Sequence record: PZ445426.1
DNA: 58,342 nt
DNA from: a phage
Reading direction: 5' to 3' (one strand)
Below are positions 9,923-43,806 of the stretch, in pieces. Numbering within the stretch: the first letter of the stretch is position 1; the number at the start of each line of letters is the position of its first letter. The notes below the pieces were generated by a model. The model searched no databases and had not been told where the DNA came from. It saw only the letters and a program-made list of their open reading frames with translations. A program made the position numbers and the translations under genes.

Positions 9923-12900
9923 TGGCCGAAACTGCTTCGCTAGTAATCAGGGTTGACGCGAAAGGGATTAGCACAGCGGACTCCATGCTGCGTAACCTTG
10001 CGCGTACAGGTGACACAGCGGAGCGTTCCGCTCAACGTGTCACATCCAGCTATAAGACATTGTCTAACACATCTAACGAACTTGCAACTGTCACAAGTCG
10101 TTTAGATGCTGCAATTGTAGGAATGATTAGCGTCGACACCATTAACCGTGTTATTTCTCTATCGGACTCCTGGACTATCCTCACCAACAAGCTTGAACTG
10201 GCTCGTACTGGTAATGAAACCGTTGCGGATGCGCAGCAACGCGTGTTTGATATTGCCCAGCGGTCACGTACAAGCTTGGAAGCAACTGCAACTCTATATT
10301 CCCGTCTCCAGCGTGCAATGAAGAATACTGGTATGACGGGTATGGAGCTTGGACGTATCACTGAAACAATTAACAAAGCGATGATTGTTTCCGGTGCAAC
10401 GTCACATGAAGCAAGTGCCGCCCTTATTCAGTTTTCGCAAGCAATGGCATCCGGTGTTTTGCGCGGGGATGAATTCCGTTCTGTTGCAGAACAAGGCCCG
10501 CGCTTAACTCAAATCATGTCCGATGCGTTAGGTGTTACCATTGGACAATTGCGTGAAATGGCGTACAGCGGCAAGTTAACCGCTGATGTGGTTATCAAAT
10601 CGTTGTCTGGTGCTGCGGATACAATTGATAAAGAATTCAGCCGCACTATGCCAACGTTCAACCAGCAATGGACAATTGCGACAAACAACCTAACTAAGTT
10701 TATGGGCGAATCCCAAAAGACTCAAGGTGCGGTTGCTGCATTGGGACAGACGTTTGTTGCATTATCCAAAAACTTAGGAACGGTTGTAACGGTTGGTTCA
10801 GCTTTAGCCACAGTGATTACTGCCCGTATTATTACGGCAATGCTTGCTAAGACTAAAGCGTCTATAGCTGCTGCAAAAGCATCACAGATGGAAGCTGCAC
10901 AAACAGCGGCAACTACTGCGGTGATGCAAAGCTCTATTGGCGTTACCGTGCAGAAAGCGGCTGCGGATCGTGCTGCTTCTCTTGCAGCGTTACAGGTTGC
11001 TCGCGGGTCATTAGCGGTTGCTAAAGGTACAGCAGCGGAAGCAGGTGCACGTCTTGCGCTTATTAACGCCACCCGTGCGCATTCTGCGGCAATTATGGCG
11101 GACGTACAAGCGCGGCAAGCGCTCAATGCTGCGCTTAATGCAACTGTACCAGCCGCAAGCCGGGCAGCTACAGCAATGAGCGTGCTGCGCGGTGCTATGG
11201 GGTTAATTGGCGGTCCTGTTGGTGTAGCAATGCTGGCAGCGGGTGCAATTTACTCCTATAAAGCATCGCTGGAAGCTGGTCGTGCGGAAAACAATCAGTT
11301 TGCGGATAGTGTTGATTCTGTACGCGAGAAACTGATGCAGATGACAGAAGCTCAGTTGGCAGCTAACGCAGTTAAAGCTCGCGCAATCCTCCCCGAACTT
11401 GAAGAGCAAATGAAGCGGGAGCAAACTGCTCTTAAATCTGCAACGGAAACGCAGAAGTTCTATGAAGCACAATTAAAACGTCGTGCTGCGTCCGGTCGTG
11501 ATACAGCTAGTGCCGAGAAAAATTTACAGATTGCTACGGATAACGTCAAGCTTGCTGCTGAACGTGCTGAAGAAGCTCAACGCCGTTACAACAATGTCTT
11601 AGAAATGACAAGCCCTGCTATCGAGAAGATAATTCCGTTAGCTCGTCAGCTTGCAGCGGATATGAAAGCAGTGCTTAATATCAAATCCGGTCCGCTTATT
11701 GACGAGAAAGTGCTTGATCGTTTTAAAGGTCAGTTAGGTGACGTTAACCGTGAGATTGATGTTAACACGGTTAAGGGTGCTGGCAATGCTCGCCAAGCTG
11801 CAATCCTTAGTGGACTGTATCAGACGCTGGGCAAGGATGCGGATACATACGGAAGTCTTATTCGCAAAGTAGCTATGGGCCAGGATGTTAGCTCTGAAGC
11901 AACAAGCGAGTCCGCAAAAGAACTTGTTAAATATGCTCAAGAGCTAGCGGAAGCTTACGGCAAGAATTATGATCTCGAGGAAGCGGAGAGGAACCGAACT
12001 AAAGCGACAAAAGACGGTATTAAAGCAGAACAACAGAACGCCAAAGTTATTGACGATTTACGCAACAAGCTTAACGAAGTAACTACAGGAGTTAAAGAAA
12101 ACGCTAAAGCTAAAGCGCAAGCTGTGGCACTTAATAAGCTCAATGCGTCTGCAACGGCTGCGGAAAAAGCGGAAGTTGTTAGTCTTGCTGCTGCAATTTA
12201 CGATGCAGAAGAAGCTCAAAAGAAACTGGACGAGCGTAAAAAGAATCGTAAGTTTGCTCAGGGTCTGTTAGATGAAGGTATGACAGACTATGAAAAAATC
12301 GCGTACGAGCAAAATACTAAGATTGCTGAGCTTACTGCTAAACAACGAGCGGATGACCTAGCTTACTATCAACTTTATGAGGATGCTAAAACTCAAGTCC
12401 TGAAGAAAGCAAGCATGGAAAGGGAAAATCTGGATAAAGTTCTTATGAACCGAATGATATCCTTTTCTCAGGAATCGTTGGGTATTATACTGTCAGGGCT
12501 GGAAGAAGGTGTTAGTAAACAGAACTTTATTTATAAGGCAATGTTTGCCGCACAGAAAGCAATGCAAATCCCGTCAATCCTTGCTAACACGGAAACGGCA
12601 GCATCCGCAGCGCTTGCATGGGGTACACAGCAAGGCGGTGCTACAATGGGCGCGGCTATGGCTGGAATTGTTAAAGCTATGGGTTATGCGTCCGCTGCTA
12701 CTGTGGGTGGCTTAGCAATCGCTGGCATGGCACACGATGGTATTGATAATGTTCCACGCGAAGGTACATGGTTATTGGATAAAGGTGAACGCGTACTTAA
12801 TGCTCCGTCTAATGACAAGTTAAACCGCTTCCTGGATAGCCAAGCTTCACAACAAGGTGGCGTGAATATGTCTGGTGGTGTTAGCATTGTCCAGTATATC

Positions 12901-25827: not shown

Positions 25828-26780
25828 TAGACACGTTCTCCAATTAATACACCGCGAAGATTTTCCCCAAAGAATGCGCAAGGTTGCGGATACAAACTAA
25901 AGTCCGCGGTCTTAACCACTTTTTCAAGCAATAGCAGGATATCAATATTGTACACTCCCGTTATTGTTCGGTCCTGTAATACGAAGCTTGCACCTTCTGC
26001 ATCGTCATAATGGGTACGCGCCAGACCGTTTTCAATATATACACGAGGTCTGTCTTCAGCGAAAGGTTTGATTTTATGCAAGCCTTCAAAAAGACCTGGA
26101 TCAACAGGATGTGCATTGCATTGAACATTTAAAATACGACGTATATCGGGCCACTCCGCATCAATAAGCTGTGTCCGCAACCAGCGACCTTCCGGATAAT
26201 GAAACGTCACATTGTTCTTGCTAACCTGAATATGTGTCGGGTTAGCTTTAATGCGCAGTATTTCTTTGATAGCAACAGACGGTATTATGCAGTCAATAGG
26301 GAATTGATTACCAAACCAGTATTCCGCAATTGTGACGTTATTTGTAGCAAACAGGCTACCGTTATTGATCAGGATACCGCAAGCCCAAGGACGGGATGCG
26401 TCTGAGCCTACAAACGGGGCAACAGATTTCACACCATGTACGAAGCGAGCACCGTCTATTTCGTATAAATCGCCTTCAGGGAATACGTGAGGCGTTTCTT
26501 TATCAATACAGCGTATAGCAACACGAAACGGACCTGACTTAATATTCAGCTTACCGTTGGCCATCATTGTTAGCTGTACTGTTTCGTCGCAGTTTGAGAT
26601 AGCTTTAATCATAGGCCCAGCTTCGGGCTTACAATCAATATTCAGCTCAATAGGGCTACCCAGTGCAATAACACCGTTAAAGCCCTGTACCTGCCCGTCA
26701 CGAATAAGAAAACTGGTAAGCCCTTCTACCAGTTCCTTTTTAGCAACGGAGCCTTGAACAAATTTAAGAGCGTCTAACAT
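25827..26780 (-). CDS. hypothetical protein
   Basis: 317-aa ORF, GAGGA RBS, translationally coupled to the polymerase gene; no motif recognised. Confidence 0.5.
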   Translation of the reverse strand: MLDALKFVQGSVAKKELVEGLTSFLIRDGQVQGFNGVIALGSPIELNIDCKPEAGPMIKAISNCDETVQLTMMANGKLNIKSGPFRVAIRCIDKETPHVFPEGDLYEIDGARFVHGVKSVAPFVGSDASRPWACGILINNGSLFATNNVTIAEYWFGNQFPIDCIIPSVAIKEILRIKANPTHIQVSKNNVTFHYPEGRWLRTQLIDAEWPDIRRILNVQCNAHPVDPGLFEGLHKIKPFAEDRPRVYIENGLARTHYDDAEGASFVLQDRTITGVYNIDILLLLEKVVKTADFSLYPQPCAFFGENLRGVLIGERV

Positions 26781-27007
26781 TAGCGATCCTCGATTGCTCT
26801 AATTGTGGTTAAATCTAATTCACAAGTGGGAGGGTATCCATAAAGTCCCATTTGTTTCCCTTGTGCATTAAACCATGTACCTGACGGATCCTGCCACTGC
26901 TTAGGTGTCTTGTGGAGGAATACTACTCTGTTTTCACCGTAATAATTAATTCTTACGCCTGTGTGAGTATATTTACGTTTACCTTTTGGTCTTCTTAAGT
27001 TAGCCAT
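26780..27007 (-). CDS. hypothetical protein
   Basis: 75-aa basic ORF; overlapping start/stop with neighbours. Confidence 0.4.
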   Translation of the reverse strand: MANLRRPKGKRKYTHTGVRINYYGENRVVFLHKTPKQWQDPSGTWFNAQGKQMGLYGYPPTCELDLTTIRAIEDR

Positions 27008-27927
27008 CAGAACAACTCCATTACACGATCACGGAATGTGCCGTCATGGGTAGCGTTAATGTTTGCAGCAATTACACCATACGCCCATAAGTTGAAGGCG
27101 GCACGTGATTCATAGATTGTTGATAAACGTTCGTAAGTGAAACCGTTTTGCTCAAGGTATTTAAGGACAGCGTCTTGTTCAATTTCAGTTAATGTTGAAA
27201 CATGCTTACCAAAATGATGGCGGTCCGACGACTTATCTGATACGCGCATTGGTCCCCAGGGAGGAGTAACCACACTTCCAAACGCTGCCGCTTGAATCCA
27301 GGAAGATGAGTCACAGCTATACCACGGGTAACGTTCCATAATGGTAGTGGACGTAATACCAAATGCATGAAGCTTAATCTTAGGACGACCGCTACCATCG
27401 CAAATATATTTGTCCCACATACGGTCAAGCCATGTTTTAAGCGTGTCCGTTGAACGCCCTACCATGCCACCAATCGTGATATATTCGTAGTTCTTCATGT
27501 AATATTCAAGATAGCGGAAGTCCTCACCAAAGTGAAAGCAAGGTAACGGTTTAGCACCGCGTGCTTCCATTTCAAGCTGGTTACGGTAGGTTTGCAGTGG
27601 ATCACCGATACCATCGAGCACCGACGCCATTACTGCACCATCTTCTACGCGAAGGATGTCTTTGTTGCGCTTAATGTATTCGCAGTATTCAACAATATCA
27701 ATGTGAGCACCCAAAGAGTGCGCGGAGAATGCACCGGAGTCGAGAAACACTTTAGCCCCGTCCGCACGCATCTGATCAACATACTTCTGACGCCCAACGT
27801 AGTGGTATGATTCCAAAATATGGGGCAGATTGCGCGTGATATTTTTCTCATGCTCGGACAACTTTTCATAACGCTGCTGACCAGGCATATATCCGTTCGT
27901 GTAAACTGCTGCCATAAAAACGTTCAT
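27007..27927 (-). CDS. dpdA: DpdA-like DNA-guanine transglycosylase (TGT fold)
   Basis: 306 aa; FLDSGAFS motif resembling the TGT catalytic DSG motif; GGAGG RBS; adjacent to the folE/queD/queC/queE cluster. Confidence 0.5.
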   Translation of the reverse strand: MNVFMAAVYTNGYMPGQQRYEKLSEHEKNITRNLPHILESYHYVGRQKYVDQMRADGAKVFLDSGAFSAHSLGAHIDIVEYCEYIKRNKDILRVEDGAVMASVLDGIGDPLQTYRNQLEMEARGAKPLPCFHFGEDFRYLEYYMKNYEYITIGGMVGRSTDTLKTWLDRMWDKYICDGSGRPKIKLHAFGITSTTIMERYPWYSCDSSSWIQAAAFGSVVTPPWGPMRVSDKSSDRHHFGKHVSTLTEIEQDAVLKYLEQNGFTYERLSTIYESRAAFNLWAYGVIAANINATHDGTFRDRVMELF

Positions 27928-28130
27928 TTTTGGAACGGTCCTCCAAACTGATCAATTAGTTCTAAAGTACGCCACGCTTCATTAAATGCTTCGTCCGCGC
28001 GATGTTTAGCGTCAATAAGCTGCTGCTTTAAGACATCTGTAGGCGCATCATTCTGTATTGCAGAGCAAGCATCCGCAGTACCTGCTTTAAGCTGGTAGAA
28101 TGCTGTCTCTAAGATTAGTTGTCTTGACAT
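27924..28130 (-). CDS. hypothetical protein
   Basis: 68 aa from ATG 28130 with GGAGGAAAT RBS; stop overlaps dpdA-like start. Confidence 0.4.
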   Translation of the reverse strand: MSRQLILETAFYQLKAGTADACSAIQNDAPTDVLKQQLIDAKHRADEAFNEAWRTLELIDQFGGPFQK

Positions 28131-28150
28131 ATTTCCTCCAATGACTAAAA

Positions 28151-28182
28151 AGCCCATACCAGTATTATGACCGATATGGGCT
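28151..28182 (-). terminator. intrinsic terminator-like hairpin (AGCCCATA...TATGGGCT + U-tract) downstream of folE
   Basis: 8-bp stem read directly; plus-strand A-run gives a U-tract on the minus strand. Confidence 0.4.
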
Positions 28183-28201
28183 TGATCTGTAAAGCTATCT
28201 A

Positions 28202-28816
28202 TTATTTACAAGCTTCAAGGAACTCCCGCCGCCAATAAGCACCCATATCGGTTCCCCCAAGTCCTGCGCGTGCGGTGCAACCACGGAATGCTTTAGTAAT
28301 AGTAGAGCTGCCGCATACCTGCTTAACTCCTCGCGACTCCATGCACATATGCTTGGCGTCAATATAAACACATACAGCTTTCGGATTCAGGTGCTCCTGG
28401 ATAGCGTCAGCAATCTGGTTAGTAAGACGTTCCTGAACTTGCAGTCGACGACTAAAAGCATCCACAACGCGAGACAGCTTACTAAGCCCAACAATCTTCC
28501 CATTGGGGACATAACCCACAACAGCATGCCCGATAATAGGAGCCATGTGATGCTCGCAATGACTGTATACAGGAATATCACGGACAATGACCATTTCATC
28601 CGTACCTTCCGCACCATCTTCAAAGGTTTTAAACAATCCAGCAATATTGACATCATAACCGCCGAACCATGTAGCATAAGCTTTTGCTACACGCGCTGGA
28701 GTTTCCTCCAGCCCTGGGCGCAGAACCGCGCTAACTTCAATTTGGGATAGTAAAGTACGCACAGCGTTAGCAATACGGAATTGAACACCTTCACTATTAA
28801 TACTATATTTAGACAT
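28202..28816 (-). CDS. folE: GTP cyclohydrolase I
   Basis: HCEHHMAPIIGHAVVGYVP and GLSKLSRVVDAFSRRLQVQERLT motifs; ATG 28816 (AGGAAA RBS) preferred over 28849. Confidence 0.8.
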   Translation of the reverse strand: MSKYSINSEGVQFRIANAVRTLLSQIEVSAVLRPGLEETPARVAKAYATWFGGYDVNIAGLFKTFEDGAEGTDEMVIVRDIPVYSHCEHHMAPIIGHAVVGYVPNGKIVGLSKLSRVVDAFSRRLQVQERLTNQIADAIQEHLNPKAVCVYIDAKHMCMESRGVKQVCGSSTITKAFRGCTARAGLGGTDMGAYWRREFLEACK

Positions 28817-28850
28817 GGTTTGCAGTTTCCTTGTTGTTAATGTGGTCATA

Positions 28851-29360
28851 TTACAGGCTATAGTTTACGTGACATTTCGAAGTTTCTTCGATGGTGCATT
28901 CTACAAGTTGAACGCCATGTTCGTCAAGCAGTTGCGGCCCAATTACGTTTACCATATATGCAGCCAGATTTTCAGCTGTCGGGTTGAACGGTAAAGATAC
29001 CAGCGAGTTGTCAAAGTCCCTTACATCTTGACCCGTAGTTTCGTCACAAAGTTCACAATCAACCTGAAGAGCTTTAATCAAAGGATCTTCTTCCCAATGC
29101 AGGAATTTATGATCCCAGTTGTCTTCCAGCCATTGACAGAGTGTAGTTTTAACCACACTAAAGTCGATCACACGCCCAACTTCGTCCAGTTGCTTAAGGG
29201 ACGCAAATTCGGCTTCGTCCATGACTGTATAAGGGACTTTGGGCGCAACCTTAAAGTGAAACTTATAGTTGTGACCGTGGAGGTGGCGACATTTGCTTTC
29301 GTGACCTACAACACGATGCCCAGCGCAAATCTCATGCGAACGAATTACTGTATAGCTCAT
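28851..29360 (-). CDS. queD: 6-carboxy-5,6,7,8-tetrahydropterin synthase
   Basis: CAGHRVVGHESKCRHLHGHNYKF (Cys-His-His-Glu zinc/catalytic pattern of the PTPS/QueD family). Confidence 0.75.
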   Translation of the reverse strand: MSYTVIRSHEICAGHRVVGHESKCRHLHGHNYKFHFKVAPKVPYTVMDEAEFASLKQLDEVGRVIDFSVVKTTLCQWLEDNWDHKFLHWEEDPLIKALQVDCELCDETTGQDVRDFDNSLVSLPFNPTAENLAAYMVNVIGPQLLDEHGVQLVECTIEETSKCHVNYSL

Positions 29361-29361
29361 T

Positions 29362-29631
29362 TTAACCCTCTTCTACTCTATTCATAAATTCCAAATGACG
29401 ACGCATAGTTTCTTCTTTTGTGGAAGAATTAAAATGCGACCAACCGTTATCTAACGAATAACCCCAGTAATACTCACCATACTTCTTCCGCATAGCTGGG
29501 ATGGGGCATTTCCTTCTTTCAAGCTTAGGATTCTGCGATCTTATATACGCTTGTTTTTCTTTAAGGCTTAATGCTTCAAACCAATCAGCTTGCTCGTGTG
29601 GCTTTAAATGCTTTGGAGGTACAGGAATCAT
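29362..29631 (-). CDS. hypothetical protein
   Basis: 89-aa ORF with AAGAGG RBS inside the que cluster. Confidence 0.4.
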   Translation of the reverse strand: MIPVPPKHLKPHEQADWFEALSLKEKQAYIRSQNPKLERRKCPIPAMRKKYGEYYWGYSLDNGWSHFNSSTKEETMRRHLEFMNRVEEG

Positions 29632-30224
29632 TTTAACACCTCTTTAGACTGTTCAATTTCTAACGCACGCTGTGCGGATGCAATAATATCTTTCAAGTCT
29701 TCTACCAGACTTTTATGACCGCGTTCGCCCGGCTGCAACGCCTTTTTAATTAAATGTTGTAAAGCTGGGTTAGTTGTTTTCCAAGCTTCCAAGACATCAT
29801 ACACGTCCACGATGCATTTTACAACATTGCCGTTTTGATCTTTACCATAAATAATTTTCTGATATTTATTCATGGGAATTTTAGATGGTTCATCTTTCGT
29901 AAAAATTGCGGTTTTATCAGTTCTCCAATCGGGCAGATTTGCTTCAATAGATTGTTTGACATAATCATCCGCAACAATATATCGCCAGGCTATAATATCT
30001 TGAACTTTATAAGGGCTATTCTCATCCATAGCTGAACGCCCTTCCATAGCCCAATCCCATCCATGTAATAGATTCTTAACGTGTGTGCCGTTGCGTAAAC
30101 GAACTTCAAACTTCTCATTACGAAGAAAAATAGGCATTCCTTTACCGTCGTGTTGGTGCCAAATTTTATTCAAATTATCTTTCATTTTACGCTCTCGCTG
30201 TACGTGAATGAACTTCGTAAACAA
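29628..30224 (-). CDS. hypothetical protein
   Basis: 198-aa ORF inside the que cluster; true start may be a downstream Met. Confidence 0.4.
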   Translation of the reverse strand: MFTKFIHVQRERKMKDNLNKIWHQHDGKGMPIFLRNEKFEVRLRNGTHVKNLLHGWDWAMEGRSAMDENSPYKVQDIIAWRYIVADDYVKQSIEANLPDWRTDKTAIFTKDEPSKIPMNKYQKIIYGKDQNGNVVKCIVDVYDVLEAWKTTNPALQHLIKKALQPGERGHKSLVEDLKDIIASAQRALEIEQSKEVLK

Positions 30225-30666
30225 CCCAAAGGATGGCAGATGCTGTGAACTTACTTAAGCTCATTGCTACCATTGATCCCGGATTAACAATACCTATAAT
30301 ACTTAAGAAGACAATAGAGTCAATTGGTACAGCTACCAAAGAGCTGATAAATACGCGTTGATGAAAAGGCTTCTTCGTAATCGTGTATACCGCATAGTCC
30401 GCAAACTCGCTAAGGGCGAAGGACGCAACGGATGCAACTACAACCGCAGGATCCCCGAACACCCAGCTAAGGATGCAACCGACAATCATTGCAGGAATAA
30501 CGCCTTTACCAGCGTTACGCTGTGCGTAGTCACGCAACACAAAGATAATACCTACAAAGAAAGCCATCATGGGGACTACGCCAAGAGGCGTGTTAAGCAT
30601 CGGAAGGTAGGAAAAGCCCAGGTTTACGAATGTAATTGCAGCCAGATAAGCAACGATAAATTTCAT
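30187..30666 (-). CDS. YhhQ-like queuosine-precursor transporter
   Basis: ATG 30666 with GGAGAA RBS; about 160 aa, multiple hydrophobic helices; lies between queD and queC. Confidence 0.5.
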   Translation of the reverse strand: MKFIVAYLAAITFVNLGFSYLPMLNTPLGVVPMMAFFVGIIFVLRDYAQRNAGKGVIPAMIVGCILSWVFGDPAVVVASVASFALSEFADYAVYTITKKPFHQRVFISSLVAVPIDSIVFLSIIGIVNPGSMVAMSLSKFTASAILWVVYEVHSRTARA

Positions 30667-30786
30667 ACTTTTGTTCTCCAGTTTTAACAGCGTTATTCGC
30701 TGGTTGTTGGGTTTAAAAGCTTTAGTAGTATAGTTGGGTCCCCGCACCCTAAACAATGCGCTAGCGGTGCGGTTTTCGCGGTAAGA

Positions 30787-31494
30787 TCAAGCTTTGCTAA
30801 TAAATTCGCTGTACCCTTTAGCACGCAGTTTGCACGCAGGACATTCACCGCAACCATATCCCCAGTCATGCAGAGTGCGACGGACGCCATTATAGCAAGT
30901 ATGGGACTGTTCAATTACTGTGGTTAAGAAACCAACCTTATCCGCCAGTTCAAACGTTTCCGCTTTGTTTAAACGCATAAGGGGGGTAACAAAATGAATA
31001 TCTGTTTCATATCCAACGTTTAACGTAGCTTCAAGGAGATCAACAAACTGCTGGCGACAATCCGGATAACCGCTATAGTCTGTTTCACAAACGCCTGTAA
31101 CCACATATCGGGCTCCAACCTTCTGCGCGTAGGCGTGCGCTGTAGTCAGGAAAAGCGCATTACGGTTTGGCACAAAGCTTGCCGGAAGGTTGTTGTGCTG
31201 TTCGTGGTGTTCGTTAACATCGCCTTCGTTCCCAATTAAAGCACTATTGCCAATCTGTTTCAAAGCAGGTAATTCAAAGACAACAAACGGGACATTGTGC
31301 TCTTTACATATCTGTTCAGCGCAAGCCAATTCCACAGTGTGACGTTGACCGTATGCAAAACCAATAGCGTAAACCTTATCATAGTTATTAAGTGCAAGAC
31401 CTAAACAGGTCACGCTGTCCTGGCCGCCAGACAGGACGACAACGGCGGAGTTATGATTTTTTACAGGGAATACCAGTTTATCTAATTTATTCAT
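30787..31494 (-). CDS. queC: 7-cyano-7-deazaguanine synthase
   Basis: N-terminal PP-loop VVVLSGGQDS; C-terminal Cys cluster (CYNGxxxxxxxGYGCGECPAC); 235 aa stand-alone. Confidence 0.8.
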   Translation of the reverse strand: MNKLDKLVFPVKNHNSAVVVLSGGQDSVTCLGLALNNYDKVYAIGFAYGQRHTVELACAEQICKEHNVPFVVFELPALKQIGNSALIGNEGDVNEHHEQHNNLPASFVPNRNALFLTTAHAYAQKVGARYVVTGVCETDYSGYPDCRQQFVDLLEATLNVGYETDIHFVTPLMRLNKAETFELADKVGFLTTVIEQSHTCYNGVRRTLHDWGYGCGECPACKLRAKGYSEFISKA

Positions 31495-31495
31495 T

Positions 31496-31684
31496 TTAGA
31501 AACCTTTAAGACTAATATTAAGGTTAATGACTACTTGTTCCACCACCGCTTCAGATGTTACCTGACGCTGGTGTATCTCAAGCTCCGAATGTATTTTCTT
31601 TGATGCAGCGCGGCAAATAGCGTCATTCAACTCGTCCTGTAAACGTTGGATTTTCTGCATAAGAATTACAGTTTCTTCATTCAT
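31496..31684 (-). CDS. hypothetical protein
   Basis: 62-aa ORF between queE and queC. Confidence 0.35.
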   Translation of the reverse strand: MNEETVILMQKIQRLQDELNDAICRAASKKIHSELEIHQRQVTSEAVVEQVVINLNISLKGF

Positions 31685-31889
31685 CTTCTACACCTTTAAT
31701 ATCACAAGGATTGATTGTTACATTTGACATCACAATTGGATGATTGCGTGCCCCAATTGTGCTAACGTGATTAATATCTAATTCTACATGCACGCCCTGC
31801 ATAGTAGCATGAGCAATTGAAGAATTAAGTTTTTCTACCAGCTCAGTGATCATTTCCTGATGCTGTTTCGCTTCTTCCAAAGTGATCAT
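31677..31889 (-). CDS. hypothetical protein
   Basis: 70-aa ORF; start overlaps queE stop. Confidence 0.35.
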   Translation of the reverse strand: MITLEEAKQHQEMITELVEKLNSSIAHATMQGVHVELDINHVSTIGARNHPIVMSNVTINPCDIKGVEDE

Positions 31890-32596
31890 TATTCCACCCC
31901 GATATATTTATGAACCTGAAGCTGCAACGTGTAACCGTGTTTCATACAGCTTTGGACAACCGCTTGGATATTGCTGTGGTTAAGGTCTTCATCCTGCTCG
32001 TCCATTGGCTGTAAATATATCTTACCCTTGAACCCCTTCGGAGGTCTAGCGATAAATGGCGTAGCTTGATGATCTAATGCTTGAAGAGGTAAACCATCTT
32101 CCACGTTTACACAGCACGCTTTAAGTACATATTTAAATGCATTAGCGCGGCGCAGCACAGAAGGATGAATCTTTGAGGTCTTGGGACTACATACAATCAC
32201 AGGTAACTGGGAAAAGTTCTTAGGTAAAGGCATAGATCCATTAGTTTCAATTTGCACCAAATACCCGCGCGATAACAGTTGTTCAATAAACGGGTTAATT
32301 TGCTGACGGAACGGTTCACCCCCAGTGATAACCACAAGTGAGGTGCTATTGCCTGATTCCAGCTTACGGCTTTCGATTAAACGCATAATATCGACAATAT
32401 GATAAAGACTACGACCAACAGTATAATCTGTATCACAGCCAGGGCATTGCAGATTACACCCAGCAAGACGCACAAATACAGCAGGTTGGCCGCAGAATGG
32501 ACCTTCACCCTGAATGGTAGAGAATACCGAATGGACGTCTAAATACATATCGTTTTCTTTAGAACGGGACTCGGGAGCTTGTTGATTAATATTCAT
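31889..32596 (-). CDS. queE: 7-carboxy-7-deazaguanine synthase (radical SAM)
   Basis: VFVRLAGCNLQCPGCDTDY (QueE-type CxxxCxxC cluster); GAGGA RBS. Confidence 0.8.
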   Translation of the reverse strand: MNINQQAPESRSKENDMYLDVHSVFSTIQGEGPFCGQPAVFVRLAGCNLQCPGCDTDYTVGRSLYHIVDIMRLIESRKLESGNSTSLVVITGGEPFRQQINPFIEQLLSRGYLVQIETNGSMPLPKNFSQLPVIVCSPKTSKIHPSVLRRANAFKYVLKACCVNVEDGLPLQALDHQATPFIARPPKGFKGKIYLQPMDEQDEDLNHSNIQAVVQSCMKHGYTLQLQVHKYIGVE

Positions 32597-32618
32597 CTTA
32601 AATCCTCTAGTGAAAAAG

Positions 32619-32640
32619 AAAGCGCCTCATTGGGCGCTTT
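32619..32640 (-). terminator. intrinsic terminator hairpin (AAAGCGCC-caatga-GGCGCTTT + CUUUUUC) immediately upstream of queE
   Basis: read directly; TTGTAA-18-TATAAT promoter-like hexamers abut it at 32642..32671. Confidence 0.5.
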
Positions 32641-32665
32641 CATTATAACGTGATATGTTTTGATA

Positions 32666-33469
32666 TTACAAGCCGTTCAGGGCTTCCGGTACTGGCATAG
32701 GCACACGACCAGTTACACCATTGAACTTCTTCCAACGTGCATACTGAGTTTTAACAGTATCTTCGTTCAGACCGTGACGACCTGCCAGATTCAGAACATA
32801 AGAGATCGGAGCAGGCTGACCCAGCGTAGCGCTAATCTGATCCATCAGAGCCCAGGCACGACCGCAGGAAGTTTCCGGTTGCGGACGGCGAACACCGTTC
32901 TGTTCAGGCATACGATTAGCTTCTTTTTCTTTCTCGCGGAGCTCTTTAGCGCGTGCTTTTTCCGCTTCTTTTTCTGCCTGTTTTGCAGCACGAATCTTGT
33001 CTTTGAAGCCTTTAATAGTAGCTTCCAGACCATCCACCAGACCCTGAGCAGAAGTTACAGCACCGGACAGGTCTTCACCTTTAGACTTCTTAACGACAGC
33101 TTTCAGCTCTTTCAGAGCTTCTTTAATGGTCTTCAGGTTTGCAGATCCCTGAGTTCCTGCTTCCGTGATCTGTTCAACAGTGCTTTCGTCGGTGACGGTA
33201 GCCAAAGAGTTTTTCAGGATTTCAGCAGCGTTAGCAATCGCATTAAATTTGTTTTCCGCTTCAATGCGGATTTCAGCTTGTTTCTTTTCAGCGGCAGCTT
33301 TTTTCTCTGCTTCTTTTTTCTCTTTTGCTACGCGTGCAGCTTCAGCAGCAGCGGCTTTCTTAGCTTCTGCATCATTCACAGTAGCTTCTTTCTTTGCAGG
33401 TTTAGCAGATTTTGCAGCGGCAGCAGCGGCAGCAGCGGCAGCGGCTTTTTTATCTTCAATGTTGCTCAT
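32666..33469 (-). CDS. Lys/Ala/Glu-rich histone-H1-like protein with poly-Ala tract
   Basis: ATG 33469 with GGAG RBS (track start 33478 is GTG); N-terminal KKAAAAAAAAAAAAK and KAAAEKK repeats; globular C-terminal 90 aa. Confidence 0.45.
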   Translation of the reverse strand: MSNIEDKKAAAAAAAAAAAKSAKPAKKEATVNDAEAKKAAAAEAARVAKEKKEAEKKAAAEKKQAEIRIEAENKFNAIANAAEILKNSLATVTDESTVEQITEAGTQGSANLKTIKEALKELKAVVKKSKGEDLSGAVTSAQGLVDGLEATIKGFKDKIRAAKQAEKEAEKARAKELREKEKEANRMPEQNGVRRPQPETSCGRAWALMDQISATLGQPAPISYVLNLAGRHGLNEDTVKTQYARWKKFNGVTGRVPMPVPEALNGL

Positions 33470-33596
33470 TCTCTTCACTCCGAATTGTTATGGGTTCGTT
33501 TGTTACCAACGGGGTTAAATGTACCAAAGGATTTTGTGACACGCAACCCCTTATCTGAACATTTTTAAAAATATTTTTGATCAAGCTTAGAACTTA

Positions 33597-34091
33597 CTAG
33601 CTCTTTGCCCCTCTTCCCGGCGTCCATGCAGCTTGCAATGCGGGTTGTTCACAAACGACCCGGGCACCGGAAATAATACCACCCTCCCGTTCAGCATCGT
33701 ATTTGACACGGGCAGGTTTCCAAAGTCCTTCATCCATTGACGGTACATATTGCCCAATTTGAGGTGAGCAAAAGCCTTGGATATCGTATTCCACACAGAA
33801 TTCGGCTTGTGCGCTGATTTGGGCGTGATCCAGGATTGTTTCTGGAAGTTGAGTAAAGTAATCAAACAAAATGCGCTCAACAATTTCCCGTTCATAAGGT
33901 GCAGCTCCTAAGTTTTCTGTCAGGTTAATATAAAGCATTTGAAGATCAACATCTTCAAGATCTTTTAAATCGTTTACTGGTGTTACCAGTGTTGACTCTG
34001 GACAACAAATAATTCCAAGTTGGTGTAGTGTCAGCCAATTGGGATGCTTTGCCAAGAGTTCAAATTTATCTGTATCAATCAGGACGTACAT
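33597..34091 (-). CDS. hypothetical protein
   Basis: 164-aa ORF in minus-strand operon. Confidence 0.45.
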   Translation of the reverse strand: MYVLIDTDKFELLAKHPNWLTLHQLGIICCPESTLVTPVNDLKDLEDVDLQMLYINLTENLGAAPYEREIVERILFDYFTQLPETILDHAQISAQAEFCVEYDIQGFCSPQIGQYVPSMDEGLWKPARVKYDAEREGGIISGARVVCEQPALQAAWTPGRGAKS

Positions 34092-42784: not shown

Positions 42785-43249
42785 TTAAGAATATGTGCCT
42801 GTTTGCACAATGTGATTAATAGCATGTGCTCTGAAGATTTCTCTAAAATCTTCAAGTTCTATTGTGGCACGAATTGGTTCCTTTTTAATATAATGATTGA
42901 ACTCATTAATATCAAAGACGGAAGGGTTCATACATATAACAACTTTCCAACCCGCTCTAGGAATCTTATACATTAAGACCGGGATTTTATTACATTCCTG
43001 TGCAGACTTAACAGTTTGCTTCCACCATGTGTTAACAGCAAGAGTTGCATGGTTTTTAATCTCTACACAATATTGGCAAGTATTATCAATATCCGCACCA
43101 CCTACAGCGGATTGATTTTGTCGCCTTTGTGCAATAGGTTTAGGTGGTAACGGTTTACCAATAAGCTTATGCACTTCAGCATAAATATCGTTGAAAAAAT
43201 CGCAGGCTTCCCTTTCAGCTCTCTGACCTTTTTGACGTATGTTGACCAT
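42785..43249 (-). CDS. putative PD-(D/E)xK resolvase-like nuclease
   Basis: ATG 43249; GADIDNTCQYCVEIK resembles a D...E.K nuclease core; weak call. Confidence 0.3.
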   Translation of the reverse strand: MVNIRQKGQRAEREACDFFNDIYAEVHKLIGKPLPPKPIAQRRQNQSAVGGADIDNTCQYCVEIKNHATLAVNTWWKQTVKSAQECNKIPVLMYKIPRAGWKVVICMNPSVFDINEFNHYIKKEPIRATIELEDFREIFRAHAINHIVQTGTYS

Positions 43250-43727
43250 GATTTGCAAATTCCTTATGTAATTCCAATCTTTTAGCTCTAACCCAAGCTT
43301 TAGCAGCTTGTAAACCTTCAGGTGTAAATTCAAAATATTTTGATACCAGAACACCTCTTACATGTAAGTTTGCATAGTAAACTTGAATACCGTTATGTTT
43401 TGTAATGGTTACACACTTGACACCAGTTTTTGAGTCTTTACGAATAACCATATTATAATTGTTCTGTGAACGATCAGCCAGTCTAAGATTTTCTATTCTG
43501 TTATCGTCTCGAACTCCATTAATATGATCAATTATCATGCCTTCGGGGATATCACCATTGAAGTATTGCCATATTAATCTGTGAGCAAAATAAAATTTCT
43601 TATCAATCTTACCTTGGATATAACCATCCTGACGTCTTGTACCAAATGGTCTTTTATTATATCCGTTTTTATTTCTTTGAAATAATTTGCCATCTATATA
43701 AATAAAACGATCGTTTACATTGATCAT
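43215..43727 (-). CDS. HNH homing endonuclease
   Basis: ATG 43727 with AGGAGG RBS; HRLIWQYFNG...IDHINGVRDDNRIENLRL; preceded by a terminator. Confidence 0.65.
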   Translation of the reverse strand: MINVNDRFIYIDGKLFQRNKNGYNKRPFGTRRQDGYIQGKIDKKFYFAHRLIWQYFNGDIPEGMIIDHINGVRDDNRIENLRLADRSQNNYNMVIRKDSKTGVKCVTITKHNGIQVYYANLHVRGVLVSKYFEFTPEGLQAAKAWVRAKRLELHKEFANHGQHTSKRSES

Positions 43728-43774
43728 ATTTACCTCCTTTATACATATTTTAATATGAAGTAAAATCAATCTCA

Positions 43775-43806
43775 ATAAAAAAGCGCAACGTTTTCACGCT
43801 GCGCTT
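43775..43806 (-). terminator. intrinsic terminator (AAGCGCA-loop-TGCGCTT + UUUUUUAUU)
   Basis: read directly in the intergenic region upstream of the HNH gene. Confidence 0.55.

Follow-up and report, generated by a model that had tools for sequence, protein, structure and literature searches.

A probable Seuratvirus dPreQ0 DNA-hypermodification module in Escherichia phage VogelGryff

The DNA analyzed here (the window, 58,342 bp) is the complete genome of Escherichia phage VogelGryff (Bas25, Seuratvirus), and a minus-strand gene cluster at positions 27007..32596 is very probably the Seuratvirus dPreQ0 DNA-hypermodification module. The cluster comprises dpdA, folE, queD, a short yhhQ-like gene, queC and queE together with five small ORFs. 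It is already described, with GenBank labels naming DpdA and preQ0-pathway enzymes, and among its proteins exact sequence matches were found to QXV85455.1, QXV85458.1 and QXV85459.1 of phage VogelGryff. The six named genes are intact, full-length ORFs whose catalytic motifs, read from the translations, are complete. An initial annotation had proposed a 7-deazaguanine DNA-modification cluster; all six genes that it named were found on the minus strand where it had placed them, and every motif that it quoted is present in the translations. Profile-HMM searches (Pfam, NCBIfam and PHROG), which it had suggested as a check, gave matches far above chance for the named genes. FolE, QueC and QueD were matched, DpdA was recognized by PHROG and not by the Pfam TGT model, and the YhhQ-like protein scored below cut-off.

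Four of the genes encode enzymes of preQ0 synthesis. The GTP cyclohydrolase I gene folE (28202..28849, minus strand; start at 28849 or 28816 uncertain) specifies a protein that matches PF01227 at 2.2e-62, scores 205 bits on NF006825 (cut-off 174), lies above the cut-offs of three NCBIfam FolE models and carries the zinc motif CEHH at residue 98. Its weak match to QueF, under the cut-off, we read as cross-reaction between FolE and QueF, whose folds are related. The 6-carboxytetrahydropterin synthase QueD (28851..29360, minus strand; 169 aa, identical in sequence to QXV85458.1) has the motif CRHLHGH (CxxxHGH) at residue 24 and matches PTPS PF01242 at 3e-22 (79.5 bits, cut-off 22.4), with 63.5 bits on TIGR03367 falling under the cut-off of 89.25. 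The stand-alone preQ0 synthase QueC (30787..31494, minus strand; 235 aa, no Gat domain) matches PF06508 at 5.9e-75 and TIGR00364 with 243 bits (cut-off 150), and has SGGQDS at residue 22 and a C-terminal Cys cluster, C-x15-C-x2-C-x2-C, at residue 200. The radical SAM enzyme QueE, a 7-carboxy-7-deazaguanine synthase (31889..32596, minus strand; 235 aa), carries CNLQCPGC (CxxxCxxC) at residue 47 and has a match to PHROG 2076 (6e-69). It also matches five QueE models of NCBIfam at 1e-20 to 6e-28, in each case under the equivalog cut-off.

The dpdA gene (27007..27927, minus strand) encodes a 306-aa DNA-guanine transglycosylase of the phage 9g/CAjan type (DpdA1). It matches PHROG 887 at 4e-96, has DSGAFS at residues 63–68 and is identical to CAjan DpdA at 304 of 306 positions (99.3%). 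Nine active-site residues predicted by modelling are all kept between the two proteins and are invariant in 38 homologues of ~70% identity. On the NCBIfam bacterial DpdA model, whose cut-off is 200 bits, the protein scored 17, and the Pfam search gave no match to the TGT model. The only matches that Foldseek returned from the PDB were generic TIM barrels, TGTs among them, at E ~3e-3. Past residue 208 the AlphaFold model is of poor quality, and it aligns to the catalytic barrel of arcTGT only (200/577 residues). Bacterial DpdA depends on the ATPase DpdB, and the number of guanines that it modifies is far smaller. It (Salmonella Montevideo; PDB 7ui4) and the archaeal and bacterial TGTs are ~15–17% identical to phage DpdA, whose 306 aa compare with 413, 577 and 373 aa in these longer proteins.

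This analysis establishes the identities of the genes, their motifs and fold, and their synteny with and close similarity to those of CAjan. In the Seuratvirus CAjan the genes dpdA-folE-queD-yhhQ-queC-queE stand in the same order (PMC6884629; PMC7544227) and in the same neighborhood, flanked by the DNA polymerase and clamp genes at one end and by the helicase gene at the other; the gene order is also syntenic with that of GottfriedDienst. QueE is identical to its CAjan counterpart at 235/235 positions (100%), the YhhQ-like protein at 157/159 (98.7%) and QueC at 94.6%. FolE and QueD, in contrast, are only ~74% identical to those of CAjan in global alignment (79% and 75%, respectively, by local tblastn), so their activities are assigned from family membership.

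The initial annotation had preQ0 made from GTP and inserted into DNA by DpdA; this reading is supported, and it agrees with what experiments have demonstrated in the congener CAjan. CAjan DNA contains 70,628 dPreQ0 per 10^6 nt (~32% of G), and none in a dpdA deletion (PMC6884629); overall dPreQ0 stands at ~25–32% of dG, at the motifs GA and GGC (PMC6884629, PMC7544227), and is the sole 7-deazaguanine detected by LC-MS/MS targeted at known derivatives (PMC7544227). Deletion of queC lowered dPreQ0 12-fold by LC-MS/MS, deletion of folE resembled that of queC in Nanopore sequencing and left the phage restriction-sensitive, and modification in a yhhQ deletion was that of wild type (PMC7544227). This single-gene deletion evidence covers dpdA, folE, queC and yhhQ. 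With base and motifs carried over from CAjan, the same base would be expected at the same motifs in VogelGryff DNA. The density of these motifs is the same: GA accounts for 24.4% and GGC for 4.06% of G in VogelGryff (sum 28.5%), against 23.96% and 4.28% of dG in CAjan (PMC10484667), or 28.2%. The analysis turned up neither QueF nor a Gat domain nor any other tailoring enzyme, and the 20 further ORFs scanned contained no QueF, amidotransferase or methyltransferase. Because QueC stands alone and QueF was not found, dPreQ0, the initial guess, would be the end product, which matches CAjan chemistry.

In the proposed pathway FolE, QueD, QueE and QueC would convert GTP through H2NTP, CPH4, CDG and ADG to preQ0 (7-cyano-7-deazaguanine). 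After replication the TGT-fold DpdA would flip guanines out in GA and GGC contexts and swap the base for preQ0; for these catalytic details we infer Asp206 as nucleophile and Asp63 as general base. About 28% of dG (~60 per 1000 nt) would become dPreQ0, which would impede many type I/II restriction enzymes and leave EcoRI and type III systems unaffected. The presence of preQ0 in the phage's own DNA would in this way blunt host restriction enzymes. According to the BASEL study, Queuovirinae resist restriction-modification of types I and II and are all sensitive to type III systems, and VogelGryff is partly EcoRI-sensitive (PMC8594841).

The yhhQ-like gene (30187..30666, minus strand), with GGAG upstream of its start ATG, encodes a short VUT/DUF165-family membrane protein of 159 aa, a putative preQ0 transporter. 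Homology to E. coli YhhQ/VUT (DUF165, PF02592) is detectable, with 14 residues invariant across the alignment with cellular proteins, and the phage protein has a multi-pass hydrophobic profile. It differs in being shorter than the cellular homologues found (~187–193 aa) and in scoring slightly under the Pfam cut-off (Vut_1, 2e-5, 25.5 bits against 27.2) and the NCBIfam equivalog cut-off (TIGR00697). All 39 aligned homologues match Vut_1, and identity to cellular 'queuosine precursor transporter' proteins is 45–49% across 63% of the query. The YhhQ-like precursor transporter of the initial annotation is a VUT-family membrane protein, with transport as its putative role. It probably salvages or retains preQ0 but is dispensable.

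The five small ORFs also lie on the minus strand. Limits drawn initially for 27924..28130 were correct, but 29362..30224 and 31496..31889 each contain two genes. The orf68/77 gene (27924..28130; 68 aa, or 77 aa from a start at 28157) has a GGAGGA ribosome-binding site ahead of the 28130 start, better than that at the alternative start, and matches PHROG 20065 at 2e-40; orf62 (31496..31684) matches PHROG 24420 at 2e-44, both families being labelled 'unknown function'. Among nine loci compared, these two ORFs are restricted to E. coli Seuratviruses, and orf70 (31677..31889; PHROG 26258 at 2e-51), of which orf62 is a weak paralogue (BLASTP 1e-4), is found outside them only in Hafnia phage yong3 (45% identity). 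The accessory orf89 (29362..29631) has no match in Pfam, PHROG or NCBIfam and occurs in 11 phage records only. Its slot, which lies between queD and the gene for the 185-aa protein, is variable: VogelGryff has this 89-aa ORF there, CAjan an unrelated 107-aa ORF, and GottfriedDienst and two metagenomic contigs no ORF at all. The 185-aa gene (29628..30185) combines a Seuratvirus-specific N-terminal part, the half that diverges from CAjan (55% identity overall), with a C-terminal ~70-aa domain common across phages (703 phage records). Most of the phage groups behind these records are not known to us to carry 7-deazaguanine modification. Four of the small ORFs have CAjan orthologues, at 94%, 55%, 87% and 96% identity.

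A tailoring or delivery role had initially been suggested for these ORFs, and one of them could make another final base (dADG, dG+, dPreQ1 or a new derivative). All five are interleaved among the pathway genes, the orf70 family is labelled 'radical SAM domain-containing' in PHROGs and the CAjan record, and the published CAjan LC-MS/MS was aimed at known derivatives. We nevertheless consider such a product very unlikely. CAjan, with its four orthologues, shows dPreQ0 only, at a level covering all GA/GGC sites; the orf70 label is unsupported by any Pfam match, and none of the five ORFs has a Pfam match above noise, even at E<=10. The five are missing from the compared loci of iggy, NP1, Acinetobacter HD01 and Vibrio CA8, the orf89 slot is empty or otherwise filled in sister phages, and the wide spread of the 185-aa protein's C-terminal domain and the 20-ORF scan for QueF, Gat and methyltransferase also argue against it. 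Since the small ORFs are confined to close Seuratvirus relatives and missing from iggy, which makes dPreQ0 with five core genes, a tailoring role is unsupported; they are probably lineage-specific passengers outside the chemistry.

That the cluster instead acts on tRNA, with preQ0, preQ1 or queuosine put into host or phage tRNA and translation tuned, is suggested by the tRNA-guanine transglycosylase fold of DpdA and by the name 'queuine tRNA-ribosyltransferase' that its homologue bears in many GenBank records. We hold this to be extremely improbable: DNA modification is abolished in CAjan once its near-identical dpdA is deleted, the small size of DpdA, its barrel-only alignment to arcTGT and its lack of a Pfam TGT match speak against a tRNA enzyme, VogelGryff encodes no tRNA, and the Q-specific QueA, QueG and QueH are unreported in phages (PMC6884629). 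The chance that the cluster is decayed or silent in VogelGryff is practically negligible. VogelGryff carries a unique, divergent queD allele, which forms a single-sequence cluster and whose nucleotide identity to phage records does not exceed ~86%, and the phage is one of only two BASEL Queuovirinae with some type I/II restriction-modification sensitivity (PMC8594841). However, the six genes are full-length with intact catalytic motifs, EcoRI sensitivity is a known trait of dPreQ0-DNA in CAjan and iggy (PMC6884629, PMC10484667), five EcoRI sites are still in the genome, and VogelGryff is otherwise reported to be type I/II-resistant (PMC8594841).

The dPreQ0 module of VogelGryff resembles the Nonagvirus (9g/JenP1) locus in gene order, flanking genes, DpdA subfamily (67% identity), FolE, QueD (88% to JenP1) and QueE (64%). 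Nonagviruses differ in being devoid of yhhQ, orf68/77, orf62 and orf70 and in having a glutamine amidotransferase domain fused to QueC, their product being 2'-deoxyarchaeosine (dG+); Gat-QueC fusions measure 466–471 aa in JenP1, NP1 and Vibrio CA8, compared to 235 aa for VogelGryff QueC. Pseudomonas phage iggy has the five core genes and dPreQ0 in its DNA (PMC10484667), but is devoid of yhhQ and the Seuratvirus small ORFs and has a divergent 353-aa QueC, and its DpdA, 72% identical to that of VogelGryff, targets GA only (PMC10484667).

The minus-strand gene block at 27007..32596 of VogelGryff, phage Bas25 of the BASEL collection, is, in every respect that could be tested, a CAjan-type Seuratvirus dPreQ0 system. 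By megablast, about 30 Seuratvirus genomes, among them those of RCIP0359, Seurat and CAjan, share 90–94% nucleotide identity with VogelGryff in the cluster as well as in the structural half. Exact sequence matches were found for DpdA (QXV85455.1, '7-deazaguanosine inserting enzyme [Escherichia phage VogelGryff]'), QueD (QXV85458.1) and the small ORF orf89 (QXV85459.1, bas25_0037). The VogelGryff GenBank record already assigns DpdA and QueD functions, and the whole pathway is named alike in sister BASEL genomes. Since the genome is published and annotated, and the chemistry, motifs and genetics have been worked out in the congener CAjan, the cluster is already known and adds nothing new. Identity to CAjan is 99–100% for DpdA, QueE and YhhQ, 95% for QueC and about 74–79% for FolE and QueD.

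The cluster consists of closely packed minus-strand ORFs, most of which abut or share 1–8 nt with their neighbors. In transcription order, queE (31889..32596) is followed by orf70 (31677..31889), orf62 (31496..31684, overlapping orf70 by 8 nt) and queC (30787..31494). After a gap of 120 nt come the yhhQ-like gene (30187..30666), a gene for a 185-aa protein (29628..30185), orf89 (29362..29631), queD (28851..29360), folE (28202..28849), an ORF of 68 or 77 aa (orf68/77, 27924..28130 or 27924..28157) and, last, dpdA (27007..27927). The gene boundaries differ in places from those of the initial annotation: 29362..30224 and 31496..31889, taken there as single unassigned ORFs, contain two genes each. 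The membrane protein, listed as a 189-aa ORF with a TTG start, should begin at the ATG at 30666 (159 aa), in agreement with a GGAG ribosome-binding site and sister-phage annotation. Downstream, the cluster is flanked by an ORF of 75 aa and the genes for the sliding clamp and DNA polymerase B; a 270-aa protein and a helicase are encoded upstream.

The transglycosylase was analyzed against several family models. The product of 27007..27927 carries the DSGAFS motif at residues 63–68, has the TGT-like (beta/alpha)8 barrel fold and matches PHROG 887 at 4e-96. It is identical to CAjan DpdA at 304 of 306 positions, and the two differences fall outside the nine modelled catalytic and pocket residues. 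All nine (D63, D206, S64, F67, D105, H132, G153, G154 and F189 of CAjan) are identical in the VogelGryff protein and invariant across 38 homologues of about 70% identity; their assignment as catalytic aspartates (D63, D206) and preQ0/guanine-pocket residues comes from a homology model rather than a crystal structure (Kot et al., PMC7544227). Identity to DpdA of Nonagvirus JenP1 is 67%. This protein is taken to be a genuine DNA transglycosylase because of the PHROG 887 match, the near-identity to CAjan DpdA and the nine invariant residues. It is close kin of an enzyme genetically required for dPreQ0 in DNA: deletion of CAjan dpdA abolished dPreQ0 and made the phage DNA fully restrictable (PMC6884629).

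Curated models behaved differently. The Pfam TGT model (PF01702) gave no match to DpdA at E<=0.01 or even at E<=10, the NCBIfam model of bacterial DpdA (NF041059, cut-off 200) scored 17 bits, and the PADLOC DpdA model scored 16 bits. Searches of PDB sequences with phmmer and with a profile of 38 sequences returned nothing relevant, and Foldseek alone was not discriminating. VogelGryff DpdA thus lies outside the PF01702 and NF041059 models, yet shares their fold and chemistry; bacterial Dpd systems use a DpdA of another subfamily. The initial annotation had let its reading stand or fall with a TGT-family hit for this ORF. Pfam yields none, but PHROG 887 and the identity to CAjan uphold DpdA, and as the Pfam TGT search misses phage DpdA wholly, lack of a TGT hit is unfit as a refutation rule.

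Matches of FolE, QueC and QueD passed curated thresholds. FolE is a GTP cyclohydrolase I, with scores of 210 bits for PF01227 (cut-off 27, 2e-62), 205 for NF006825 (cut-off 174) and 190.7 for TIGR00063 (cut-off 181.6), and with the zinc motif CEHH at residue 98. QueD has the PTPS fold (PF01242, 79.5 bits versus 22.4, 3e-22), and its CxxxHGH signature is present as CRHLHGH at residue 24; with the stricter NCBIfam QueD equivalog it falls short (63.5 versus 89.25). QueC scored 251.8 bits for PF06508 (cut-off 22, 6e-75) and 243.3 for TIGR00364 (cut-off 150.3), and contains the PP-loop SGGQDS at residues 22–27 and a C-terminal zinc Cys cluster. QueE, grouped by the initial annotation with the other three enzymes, remained under equivalog cut-offs: its five top NCBIfam matches are all QueE models (1e-20 to 6e-28), with the best, TIGR04322 (cut-off 200), reaching 97.9 bits. 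The protein does match PHROG 2076 at 6e-69, carries CNLQCPGC (CxxxCxxC) at residues 47–54 and is 100% identical to CAjan QueE; it belongs to a divergent phage QueE clade. The motifs quoted originally for DpdA, QueC and QueE are all present.

Nonagvirus, Nipunavirus and a Vibrio relative encode Gat-QueC fusions (466–471 aa in JenP1, NP1 and Vibrio CA8), which lead to dG+, whereas QueC of VogelGryff is a stand-alone protein of 235 aa and its cluster, unlike the Nonagvirus dG+ system, has no Gat domain. The earlier observation of a stand-alone QueC and no recognisable QueF held: no QueF, Gat, ArcS, methyltransferase or amidotransferase was found among 20 further ORFs scanned, a set covering part of the small ORFs of the window. 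These ORFs had matches connected with replication and nucleotide metabolism (AAA_24, ligase, RNase H, dUTPase, PDDEXK, HNH, primase-like) or no match. FolE also gave a QueF match below the cut-off (25.2 bits versus 27.3); as the two folds are related, we read it as cross-reaction and rejected it as a sign of QueF.

In CAjan, dPreQ0 amounts to 70,628 per 10^6 nt, or about 32% of G (Hutinet et al. 2019, PMC6884629), and is the sole 7-deazaguanine found (Kot et al. 2020, PMC7544227). Deletion of queC lowered dPreQ0 12-fold by LC-MS/MS, and the folE deletion mutant resembled it in Nanopore sequencing, where the signal that remained was attributed to preQ0 of the host; the modification motifs are GA and GGC (PMC7544227). 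The best-supported mechanism for VogelGryff is carried over from this published work. FolE, QueD, QueE and QueC would convert GTP to preQ0, and DpdA would then exchange guanine for preQ0 at GA and GGC after replication, with Asp206 as the probable nucleophile and Asp63 as the probable base. The 99.3% identity of the two DpdA proteins suggests by inference the same dual GA/GGC specificity. The counts of both motifs allow the expected modification density to be predicted: 24.4% of G in VogelGryff lies in GA and 4.06% in GGC, together 28.5% of G or 62.9 sites per 1000 nt, compared to 23.96% and 4.28% of dG in CAjan (Olsen et al. 2023, PMC10484667).

The yhhQ-like protein scored slightly below the cut-off of Pfam Vut_1 (PF02592, 25.5 bits versus 27.2) and below that of TIGR00697 (20.5 versus 50.95). 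Vut_1 is, however, matched by all 39 of its aligned homologues (best 2e-11), 14 residues are invariant in the alignment, and phmmer revealed 45–49% identity over 63% of the length to cellular 'queuosine precursor transporter' proteins (1e-13). Deletion of yhhQ in CAjan left modification at the wild-type level (PMC7544227).

All cluster proteins were compared by tblastn with nine loci (CAjan, GottfriedDienst, Hafnia yong3, Nonagvirus JenP1, Klebsiella K4PH164, Pseudomonas NP1, iggy, Acinetobacter HD01 and Vibrio CA8). DpdA, FolE, QueC and QueE were found in every locus and QueD in seven, being annotated in the other two. Within this set yhhQ was restricted to Seuratvirus-like enterobacterial phages, orf68/77 and orf62 to E. 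coli Seuratviruses, and orf70 to E. coli Seuratviruses and yong3 (45% identity), while orf89 occurred in none and is present in just 11 records of the whole phage collection. Its slot is filled by an unrelated 107-aa ORF in CAjan and is empty in GottfriedDienst and two metagenomic contigs. The small ORFs between the pathway genes do not share the conservation of the pathway. Orf68/77, orf89, orf62 and orf70 had no Pfam match above noise and no PADLOC match, nor did orf89 match NCBIfam; no HMM match backs the label 'radical SAM domain-containing protein' that PHROGs and the CAjan record give to the orf70 family. The 185-aa protein carries a widespread 'PGERGHK' C-terminal domain. Orf62 and orf70 are weakly similar and look like tandem paralogues (BLASTP 1e-4; 10/26 identities in a segment of helix plus strand).

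The suggestion that the unassigned ORFs add tailoring or delivery steps found no support, since the Pseudomonas phage iggy makes dPreQ0 from five core genes alone (PMC10484667) and CAjan, with orthologues of four of the five small ORFs, shows only dPreQ0. The small ORFs appear to be passengers particular to this lineage, in a segment prone to recombination. A link to modification has a low prior for the short VUT protein, for the 'PGERGHK' domain and for the orf62/orf70 pair alike. iggy lacks both yhhQ and the second (GGC) specificity of DpdA, whereas the VogelGryff cluster has yhhQ and a probable dual specificity. An embedded lineage-specific gene (the short VUT/YhhQ-like gene, the 185-aa gene with its 'PGERGHK' domain, or orf62/orf70) might possibly serve in preQ0 scavenging or retention where the host supplies too little, or modulate the GGC specificity of DpdA, but we consider any such undescribed accessory role in deazaguanine modification very improbable.

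Mosaicism within the cluster is concentrated at 28202..30185 (folE-queD-orf89-185-aa gene). Only VogelGryff has this queD allele, which forms a one-sequence cluster and reaches at most about 86% nucleotide identity with other records; its product shares 88% amino acid identity with QueD of Nonagvirus JenP1 versus 73–75% with those of Seuratviruses, and we rate it as close to the former as to the latter. The flanking dpdA, yhhQ and queE are 99–100% identical to those of CAjan. The replication genes are interspersed with an HNH_3 homing-endonuclease-like ORF (43215..43775, minus strand; PF13392, 2e-22), and in Pseudomonas phage NP1 a homing endonuclease directly adjoins dpdA. Elements of this type may drive mosaicism of these clusters.

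A promoter and terminator scan of 26500..33700 gave no excess over shuffled sequence (17 versus 13.7 and 7 versus 7.1, respectively), and we therefore claim no operon structure. Upstream of queE, at a distance of 22 nt from its start codon, is a strong terminator-like hairpin, GAAAGCGCC-CAATGA-GGCGCTTTC followed by TTTTT (32618..32641, minus strand). A promoter-like site, TTGTAA-18-TATAAT (32671..32642), comes directly before the hairpin. A second GC-rich hairpin (about 30735..30770) lies in the queC-yhhQ gap. Rfam search revealed no preQ1 riboswitch or other family at threshold, sub-threshold matches being noise, and no tRNA was found in the window. The 270-aa protein directly upstream of queE (32666..33478, minus strand) has an Ala/Lys-rich, low-complexity N-terminal half and a C-terminal part conserved beside queE in 9 of 9 Queuovirinae-like loci compared. 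The annotation in both CAjan and Acinetobacter phage HD01 reads 'transcriptional activator (FtrA domain)', and the protein could regulate the gene block.

Phages are known to counter restriction by hypermodification with 7-deazaguanines, which is relevant to phage therapy and engineering. The BASEL study reports unusual resistance of Queuovirinae to restriction-modification systems of types I and II, partial sensitivity of VogelGryff to EcoRI, and sensitivity of all Queuovirinae to type III systems (PMC8594841). In vitro, EcoRI cuts the dPreQ0-containing DNA of both CAjan and iggy (PMC6884629, PMC10484667). The VogelGryff genome contains five EcoRI sites (GAATTC, at 10471, 10633, 15015, 33798 and 44327), compared to 16.4 +/- 4.2 expected from shuffles. 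Given the reported partial sensitivity of VogelGryff and the failure of dPreQ0 to stop EcoRI in vitro, avoidance of EcoRI sites may complement base modification.
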